The notes below the pieces were generated by a model. The model did no database searches and was not told the origin of the DNA. It was given only the letters and a program-made list of their open reading frames with translations. The position numbers were made by a program, and so were the translations under genes. From contig OX597823.1 of the NCBI GenBank assembly GCA_951406725.2, forward strand, positions 114,142,001-114,206,000: 64,000 nucleotides of DNA. Direction: 5' to 3'. The stretch's first letter is position 1. Each line of letters opens with the position of its first letter. Origin of the DNA: Octopus vulgaris (taxonomy: Eukaryota). Shown piece after piece: positions 11,381 through 12,133 of the stretch.

Positions 11381-12133
11381 TTCTATATATTTAAGAGATG
11401 AGGAATTATGGACATTATTTACATTATTTACATTTGACGGATATTTGTCCTCAACTTGTTTGTTGTTAACACAGCGTTTCGGCTGATATACCCTCAAGCC
11501 TCCATCAGCGGCATATGGCGTAGTAGTTAAGAGCGCAGACTCCAAACCCCAAGCTTCCGAGTTCGATTTCATGCAGTGACCTGAATAATAATAATAATAA
11601 TAATAATAATAATAATAATAATAATAATAATAATAATAATAATAATAATAATGATAATGATAATAATAATAATAATAATAATAATAATAATAATAATAAT
11701 AATAATATTAATAATAATAATAATAATAATGATAATGATAATAATAATAATAATAATAATAATAATAATAATAATAATAATAATAATAATAATAATAATA
11801 ATAATAATAATAATATATAATAATAATCAGACCATCAATAACCATACAATAACCATCAGAGCATCACAACAAATCACAGCACATACCCAAGGCACACAGA
11901 GCTGTGCTCGGTAGTGAAGTGAAAGCATGCTATAAAAATAAAACTACTGAATAATAATAATAATAAAGTATAATAACAAACATCGAAAAATACCTTAGGA
12001 ATGAGAACCCAGGTTCGAAATTTCCCTAAGACACCTGAAGAAGTTTGGAGGGTATATCAGCTGAAACGTTTTGTTAACAACAAACAAGATGAGGACAAAT
12101 ATCGTCAAAAGTAAACAATGTAAATAATGTATA
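11381..12133 (+). mobile_element. tRNA-headed, hammerhead-bearing non-coding retroposon with an inverted terminal copy (PLE-like architecture)
   Basis: 11406-11508 is the reverse complement of 12035-12133. A tRNA-like head lies at 11508-11575 (TGGCGTAGTAG...GAGTTCGATT), followed by internal (TAA)n. Hammerhead core CTGAAGA..GAAACGTT is at 12035-12070. Confidence 0.7.
11826..11951 (+). mobile_element. Short insert in the (TAA)n array, probable 3'UTR end of a Dong/R4 element
   Basis: Unique 125 bp flanked by (TAA)n on both sides, ending AATAAAACTACTG-(AAT)n. Family call is from recollection. Confidence 0.5.

Follow-up and report, generated by a model that had tools for sequence, protein, structure and literature searches.

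The insertion at positions 11375-12130 of the 64,000-nucleotide stretch of Octopus vulgaris DNA analysed here (the window) is one decayed member of a very abundant family of short elements, in which a tRNA-like head is joined to a 3' end that bears a hammerhead ribozyme motif. The family unit is ~250-290 bp long and contains no open reading frame (ORF). This short element is likely transcribed by RNA polymerase III (Pol III) from its head and likely copied in trans by the enzyme of a Penelope-like retrotransposon (PLE). The insertion is flanked by a 12-bp direct repeat with 11 of 12 letters the same, and its bounds replace the element ends 11381 and 12133 proposed in the sequence-only reading, which were corrected to 11375 and 12130. 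The features of the locus are collected in Table 1. The papers cited below were available as excerpts, and what is said of them refers to those excerpts.

Table 1. Layout of the insertion and its target-site duplication (window positions).
Feature	Positions	Strand	Basis and remarks
Left target-site duplication, 12 bp	11363..11374	+	11/12 identical to 12131-12142; touches the element end; single locus
37-bp tail extension, on the inverted copy only here	11375..11411	-	Family depth high from ~11375, heterogeneous flanks further out; none after 12130; end +/-1-2 bases
Inverted 5'-truncated copy of the element 3' end	11412..11508	-	87.6% over 97 nt to 12035-12130
tRNA-like head, A box from 11516, B box ~11561-11571; predicted Pol III internal promoter	11509..11583	+	Box pair, majority letters, joints at 11510
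(TAA)n tract, far longer than in family reads	11584..11827	+	Sequence; tract short in 287 reads
122-bp secondary insert within the TAA tract, outside the usual element	11828..11949		TAA on either side; absent from 287 head-to-body reads; unique in window
Short degenerate TAA/CAA tract preceding the body	11950..11979	+	Sequence
Body 5' of the hammerhead, family-conserved	11980..12030	+	Loose ends behind 11508 and behind 11597 match the body
PLE-like minimal hammerhead motif, type I; decayed	12031..12074	+	Descriptor match, pair table; family majority intact
3' end of the direct copy, stops at the family short terminus, without poly(A)	12075..12130	+	Alignment end 12130 = 11412; 221/285/225 contigs end there, flanks heterogeneous
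Right target-site duplication, 12 bp	12131..12142	+	11/12 identical to 11363-11374

Architecture of the insertion

An A box and a B box at tRNA spacing occur as one pair in the 64-kb window (A box at 11516), and a relaxed minimal-hammerhead descriptor matched at 12035 (+), at 11508 (-) and at the unrelated site 57588; neither the box pair nor a descriptor match arose in 60 shuffles. These results bear out the earlier claim that a Pol III-like head is followed by (TAA)n and a minimal hammerhead. The family majority completes both boxes, at 11525 (86-98%) and 11569 (97-99%) in four runs. The majority letter at 11509 is G; it lies seven bases ahead of the A box, at the position where a tRNA begins. 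All eight rows listed with extra letters ahead of 11510 end in G, which fits a +1 at 11509. ARAGORN and Rfam scored no tRNA on the head of the window copy, which is diverged, and free folding of decayed copies gave no tRNA shape; by eye, the majority letters can be arranged into a D arm and a CU-NNN-AA loop. The head may resemble tRNA-Thr. Pol III transcription stands as a prediction: RNA library (cDNA) depth is equal in both mate directions, and no piled starts or ends were listed. The RNA reads may derive from other transcripts in which copies of the element are contained. The absence of TTTT from the head and the inverted copy also fits Pol III, and it was given no weight because such an absence is often expected by chance.

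The 122-bp piece that interrupts the TAA tract is single in the window. It may be the 3' end of an R4/Dong retrotransposon with TAA targets; (TAA)n is the target of Dong in molluscs (PMC7998251), and O. vulgaris has active Dong elements (PMC13282606).

Both copies of the ribozyme had been described as mutationally decayed, and they are: 13 of 18 helix cells pair across the two window copies, and each copy breaks the consensus. The direct copy has one helix II mismatch, and its helix I pair beside the predicted cut between 12070 and 12071 is broken, while two core letters of the inverted copy (11502 and 11474) differ from the family majority. The intact hammerhead that had been deduced from the pair agrees with the family majority, whose letters restore the core and helix II at 11502 (94-99.5%), 11474 (81-96%) and 11496 (96-99%) in four runs. 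This majority form has the minimal hammerhead consensus (core CUGANGA / GAAA / UH, helices I and II, an extra base after the core and an ACGU palindrome) and also carries a G10.1-C11.1 pair. The extra base, this pair and the palindrome are listed for the minimal hammerheads of PLEs (PMC4209133). Rfam scored no hammerhead on either window copy, a free consensus fold of the two gave no hammerhead shape, and no helix covariation was seen in the comparison of these two sequences. Many of the more common minor variants in the DNA runs are C>T and G>A changes.

The inverted copy (11412-11508, -) aligns with 12035-12130 (+) over 97 nt (87.6%, E value ~1e-29), and no further match exists in the 64-kb window. 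The proposal that an inverted ribozyme-to-end copy sits directly upstream is therefore upheld by this alignment. The copy had also been suspected to extend by ~25 nt; the extension was found, but it measures ~37 nt, and the full inverted 3'-end piece with its tail is 134 bp long. The inverted copy starts at the first core base of the hammerhead, so that the 5' arm of helix I is missing. The family has two 3' ends ~37 bp apart, of which the long one is on the inverted copy here and the short one is on the direct copy; they lie 98 and 61 nt beyond the predicted cut. In three DNA runs, the flanks are heterogeneous at the short end, 11412 (221, 285 and 225 contigs, agreement 0.41-0.42), and at the long end near 11375 (341, 423 and 305 contigs, agreement 0.49-0.51). 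The long-end contigs are tabulated at 11386, an offset from a 2-base insertion in the window copy. The flanks are heterogeneous at 11420 as well, where the change probably reflects variants without a 9-base unit.

The target-site duplication (TSD) encloses the head together with both 3'-end copies and was seen at one locus only. When 3 bases of slack were allowed, 22 of 29,324 random point pairs were equally good. A TSD had been expected to be lacking, and the 12-bp duplication overturns this expectation; duplications of 8-10 bp are known in Adineta PLE inserts with an inverted pseudo-LTR (pLTR), whose tail spans the ORF start (PMC3846280). The 3' end is not of the LINE type (poly(A), simple repeat or LINE tail), as 12130 directly adjoins the TSD and the copies of the family terminate at one of two fixed internal positions. 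It is common for PLE insertions to have a 5'-truncated copy in inverted orientation directly 5' and a one-sided 30-40-bp tail, the latter unseen in LINE TPRT (PMC8557442). The PLE-type signatures for which the sequence-only reading had called were recovered here, namely the inverted 5' copy, a tail that is optional in the family and the lack of poly(A) at the locus. Four of the five features that mark a non-autonomous PLE were found (a minimal hammerhead in a terminal repeat, an inverted 5'-truncated copy, an optional 30-40-bp tail and a short TSD), the fifth being a 3' end shared with an autonomous RT + GIY-YIG element, for which the protein search described below gave no candidate.

The family in public sequencing runs

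Matches to 11825-12140, or to part of it, were obtained in 20 of the 24 listed runs, from four organisms and 11 studies. Four of the 24 runs were aligned to 11320-11600 at a likeness of 80; they comprise DNA contigs of organisms A, C and D and raw RNA reads of D. The records aligned to this interval numbered 23,275, 24,982 and 21,053 (DNA) and 8,196 (RNA); such alignment depth is not a copy number, and it shows a very abundant family over 11375-11508 and from 11510 onward. Exact-pattern scans of viral contigs, prokaryote genomes and metagenomes gave no copies.

The head travels with the ribozyme. The possibility that it was a chance neighbour had been set out beforehand as the refuting case, and the data speak against it. 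Two observations argue for co-occurrence. The RNA run contains 287 reads that pass from the head through a short TAA/CAA tract to the body start at ~11980 (agreement 0.79) without the 122-bp piece; these reads may come from few loci. Inverted 3' ends are also joined to the same head start at 11 breakpoints: 11 of the 15 joints listed, out of 128 in total, link the inverted piece to 11510, with breakpoints from 11409 to 11473. Run X1 has 11 of these joints, X4 has 11 and X7 has 9, each with 1-3 contigs and a shorter side of 18-29 letters, and a further table contains two more breakpoints. Since breakpoints common to three organisms may be shared loci, the inverted-joint events are counted as 11-13. 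Two joints lie near 11472, and no enrichment at the ribozyme cut is demonstrable among the 13 breakpoints. Head-to-tail tandem units were found neither at the locus nor among the 15 listed joints. The sequence behind 11508 is that of the body ahead of the ribozyme in 149, 192 and 186 contigs and in 1,184 reads (agreement 0.69-0.84; 24 of 950 loose-end rows are listed).

Other sequence lies 5' of the head in 482 reads of the RNA run (agreement 0.6), versus 5 reads with a listed inverted joint. Therefore, the inversion is not obligatory. A conserved upstream sequence in a subset of the heads is conceivable. The 3' end is deeper than the head (~4,600 versus ~1,800 reads, and several-fold in contigs), so that many 3' ends may be headless.

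Beyond the long end (11375), 377 RNA reads of run X23 share a single continuation (agreement 0.8). When the 2-base deletion of the family is taken into account, their sense-strand continuation adds 10 open codons in the frame of the ATG at 11415-11413, a length that is not significant alone. The reads may lead into the autonomous partner, or they may all stem from a single expressed locus. In a weak test, a protein search with a different open frame, taken from the inverted copy, found no partner ORF.

Two further observations were made in X23. At 11445 and 11500, 130 reads with 54 starts switch strand; they derive from an expressed headless copy, in which the inverted tail meets a direct copy whose start lies within the ribozyme, with an architecture that is otherwise alike. 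Over 11443-11484, A>G and T>C differences reach ~13% in RNA reads, whereas in the depth of the DNA contigs they stay at <1%. Fold-back copies could have undergone A-to-I editing, but editing is not claimed, because C>A and T>G are also enriched in RNA (~20% versus <=1%). Among the listed differences, A>G or T>C account for 25 of 73 in the RNA run versus 7 of 34 in a DNA run with the same species label.

Proposed mode of propagation and competing explanations

In the mechanism that we propose, Pol III would start at the head +1 (11509) and read through (TAA)n into the PLE pLTR end. The PLE protein would bind this end, and its endonuclease would nick both target strands 12 bases apart, after which each 3'-OH would prime reverse transcription at one of two internal start sites bounding the tail. 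The cDNA from the near site would run to the 5' end of the RNA and yield the direct copy without a tail; the cDNA from the far site would copy the tail, stall at a variable point and yield the inverted copy. The two cDNAs would then be joined head to head. We infer that a cDNA began at each outer junction, with priming from either end of a target cut that has a 12-base stagger. Internal priming would make a poly(A) or LINE tail unnecessary. Purified PLE protein of Anolis cuts and extends both strands, and it initiates reverse transcription internally, at two sites between which the tail lies (PMC11167929). A point against the proposed mechanism is that, under it, the tail need not end up on the inverted copy, as the PLE start site in vitro is the same on both strands (PMC11167929). 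Self-priming on an antisense template is another published route to inversion (PMC3846280).

The ribozyme is probably a passenger within the piece recognised by the PLE protein, and its cleavage is a prediction. Cleavage of a monomer would part the promoter from the priming sites, and a single minimal hammerhead motif was not cleaved in vitro (PMC4209133). Insertion by the Anolis PLE was equally efficient with a dead ribozyme (PMC11167929). The element may go back to a PLE end that inserted into a tRNA-derived repeat, within its TAA tail, and so formed a chimera that served as master copy. The 122-bp piece entered the TAA tract later.

The whole 250-290-bp unit might instead be the pLTR of an autonomous PLE that contains a tRNA-like stretch, and the short copies might be solo pLTRs or truncated products of a long RNA. 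The unit is close in length to known pLTRs (193-218 bp), and solo pLTRs have been published (PMC3846280). The reads upstream of the head agree at 0.6, which is above the 0.41-0.52 of mixed flanks, and the X23 continuation past the long end, at 0.8, would also suit this explanation. However, conserved continuations elsewhere in the loose-end table score 0.69-0.84, the 5' limit of the unit falls on the predicted tRNA +1, and the family majority has a complete A box and a complete B box. Pol III terminates at short T runs and yields uncapped RNA; as a matter of general knowledge, such RNA is a poor source of ORF mRNA. We consider this explanation, the main rival, improbable. It is very unlikely that the head belongs to an independent tRNA-derived repeat ending in (TAA)n that has been struck repeatedly by TAA-favouring PLE ends, with head and hammerhead travelling apart. 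The excess of 3' ends over heads in the runs would be expected from such hits, and PLEs are biased to microsatellites and cut at ATT (PMC8557442, PMC11167929); however, the TAA-to-body junction is identical here and in the 287 reads, inverted 3' ends meet the head start at at least 11 breakpoints, and one TSD surrounds the head and both ends. These observations largely refute the repeated-hit explanation.

Mobilisation of an ordinary SINE by a LINE, with inversion through twin priming of the L1 type, has a very slight chance of being correct. From general knowledge, a TSD and a 5' inversion arise with LINE enzymes too, and a Tx1/L1-type reverse transcriptase is present in the window. L1 twin priming inverts an upstream part and does not duplicate the 3' end, whereas the 3' end is duplicated here. 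The locus also lacks a poly(A) or simple-repeat 3' tail, and the two-terminus tail is the structure that PMC8557442 describes as unseen in LINE TPRT. Equally slight is the chance that the element spreads, like a retrozyme or Sm-alpha, through self-cleaved circular monomers from tandem arrays. A promoter followed by a hammerhead is the plan of Sm-alpha (PMC6765202), and animal retrozymes derive from PLEs (bioRxiv 2026.07.22.740005). Against it stand the absence of a tandem at the locus and of a tail-to-head joint among the 15 of 128 listed, the single minimal motif, of a kind uncleaved in vitro (PMC4209133), and the limits of the copies, which begin at the head and end 61 or 98 nt beyond the predicted cut rather than at it.

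We lean towards the reading that the family is a true Pol III SINE partnered with a PLE and is among the commonest repeats of a cephalopod genome group. It would then add a third kind of SINE partnership to the two represented by LINE-tailed SINEs and by LTR elements with small-RNA heads, and its copies would record PLE priming from both target strands at two RNA sites.

Relation to known elements and genomic surroundings

The element shares with endonuclease-bearing PLEs (Penelope/Poseidon, Neptune and Nematis; for example, Adineta Pen2a and Anolis PAc) a minimal hammerhead near the 3' end, an inverted 5'-truncated copy, a 30-40-bp tail and a short TSD. It differs from them in its lack of an ORF, its length of ~250-290 bp, its fixed tRNA-like head with A and B boxes and its internal (TAA)n. 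The pLTRs of Adineta mobilised an unrelated gene in trans (PMC3846280), and paired minimal hammerheads lie on opposite strands 100-700 bp apart in Schistosoma (PMC4209133). Several non-coding elements for which PLE enzymes are inferred to act in trans are alike in these two respects: MRC1 of Chlamydomonas (PMC8557442), the animal non-LTR retrozymes (bioRxiv 2026.07.22.740005, PMC7229834) and the short non-autonomous Penelope elements of Heliconius butterflies (PMC6685494). Unlike the window element, none of them is described with a tRNA-derived promoter in the excerpts, and the words 'tRNA' and 'promoter' are absent from the retrozyme preprint (bioRxiv 2026.07.22.740005). Retrozymes form tandem arrays, whereas the window copy is not tandem.

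Small-RNA-like heads have also been captured by a retroelement system other than LINEs in the non-autonomous LTR elements Helenus, Ajax and Cassandra (PMC10886601). These elements differ in their LTR/integrase machinery, and 'Penelope' is absent from that paper. Sm-alpha and Sj-alpha of Schistosoma have a Pol III-type promoter followed by a hammerhead (PMC6765202). These elements are described as tandem, with cleavage that releases monomers, so that single copies have no promoter upstream; no PLE partner is stated in the excerpts of this literature (PMC6765202, PMC8490949). In contrast to Sm-alpha, the window family begins at the promoter and has a minimal PLE-type motif and the inverted-plus-tail ends of PLEs.

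Ohshima and Okada reportedly described the tRNA-derived SINEs OK, OR1 and OR2 of octopus in 1994. By description only, these SINEs are like the window family in having a tRNA-like head and in being present in very many copies, and the repeats of the window look octopus-like. As a difference, OR1 and OR2 have been cited as CORE-SINEs. SINEs of cephalopods and molluscs are treated in PMC8967140, PMC4758252 and PMC4824008. No tRNA-headed, PLE-tailed SINE was found in the excerpted literature searched, the repeat libraries Repbase, Dfam and SINEBase lying outside the search. A search of literature text for five short motifs found no paper; in another such search, the 20 matches listed of 121 had a single motif only and belonged to mitochondrial-marker or otherwise unrelated papers. 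In the O. vulgaris repeat paper (PMC13282606), 'ribozyme' is absent from the text and 'hammerhead' from the supplement. The family may already bear a name and its sequence is probably in repeat libraries; the novelty lies in the partnership.

In the standard teaching, SINEs are parasites of LINEs. If the reading is true, a dispersed family with a tRNA-like head and the full set of PLE insertion scars would show that PLE enzymes drive SINE bursts too. In O. vulgaris, 893 of 900 recently active SINE families are unclassified (PMC13282606); a mechanism would then be named for part of this unclassified share, in which the membership of the window family is a conjecture. PLE priming from both strands at two RNA sites, if true, would explain the inverted-repeat-plus-tail structure. 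With its short template, fixed 5' end and many copies, the family is a natural data set for PLE integration, including the primer of the tail, the stop of the second cDNA and the joining. A compact donor composed of promoter and pLTR is also suggested for PLE-based RNA-templated insertion.

Several other features of the window were recorded. At 57588 (+) there is a further minimal hammerhead motif, unlike that of the element and with a helix II of 4 bp. It is closely preceded by an inverted-repeat piece of 204 bp (57298-57501, 86%) and followed by (TA)n. This motif (within 57298-57720) is probably the end of another PLE family. A 450-bp inverted-repeat structure at 26741-27193, 74% self-complementary, has an outward-facing CTGATGG...GAAAC in each arm; it could represent either a MITE or an inverted pair of hammerheads that has decayed. 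Another abundant SINE-like repeat occupies 10935-11170 and has about nine more matches in the window; one is paired in inverted orientation with 13701-13931 at 88%. The interval 27400-30000 contains a frameshifted fragment of a Tx1/L1-type non-LTR retrotransposon, the reverse transcriptase homologs of which are mostly unnamed; the sole named one among the 120 listed is from a cuttlefish (52%). Tandem repeats comprise a compound TAA/GAT/GAG tandem with a 177-bp period at 32040-32660 and a ~4-kb (TACA)n array at 57900-62000.
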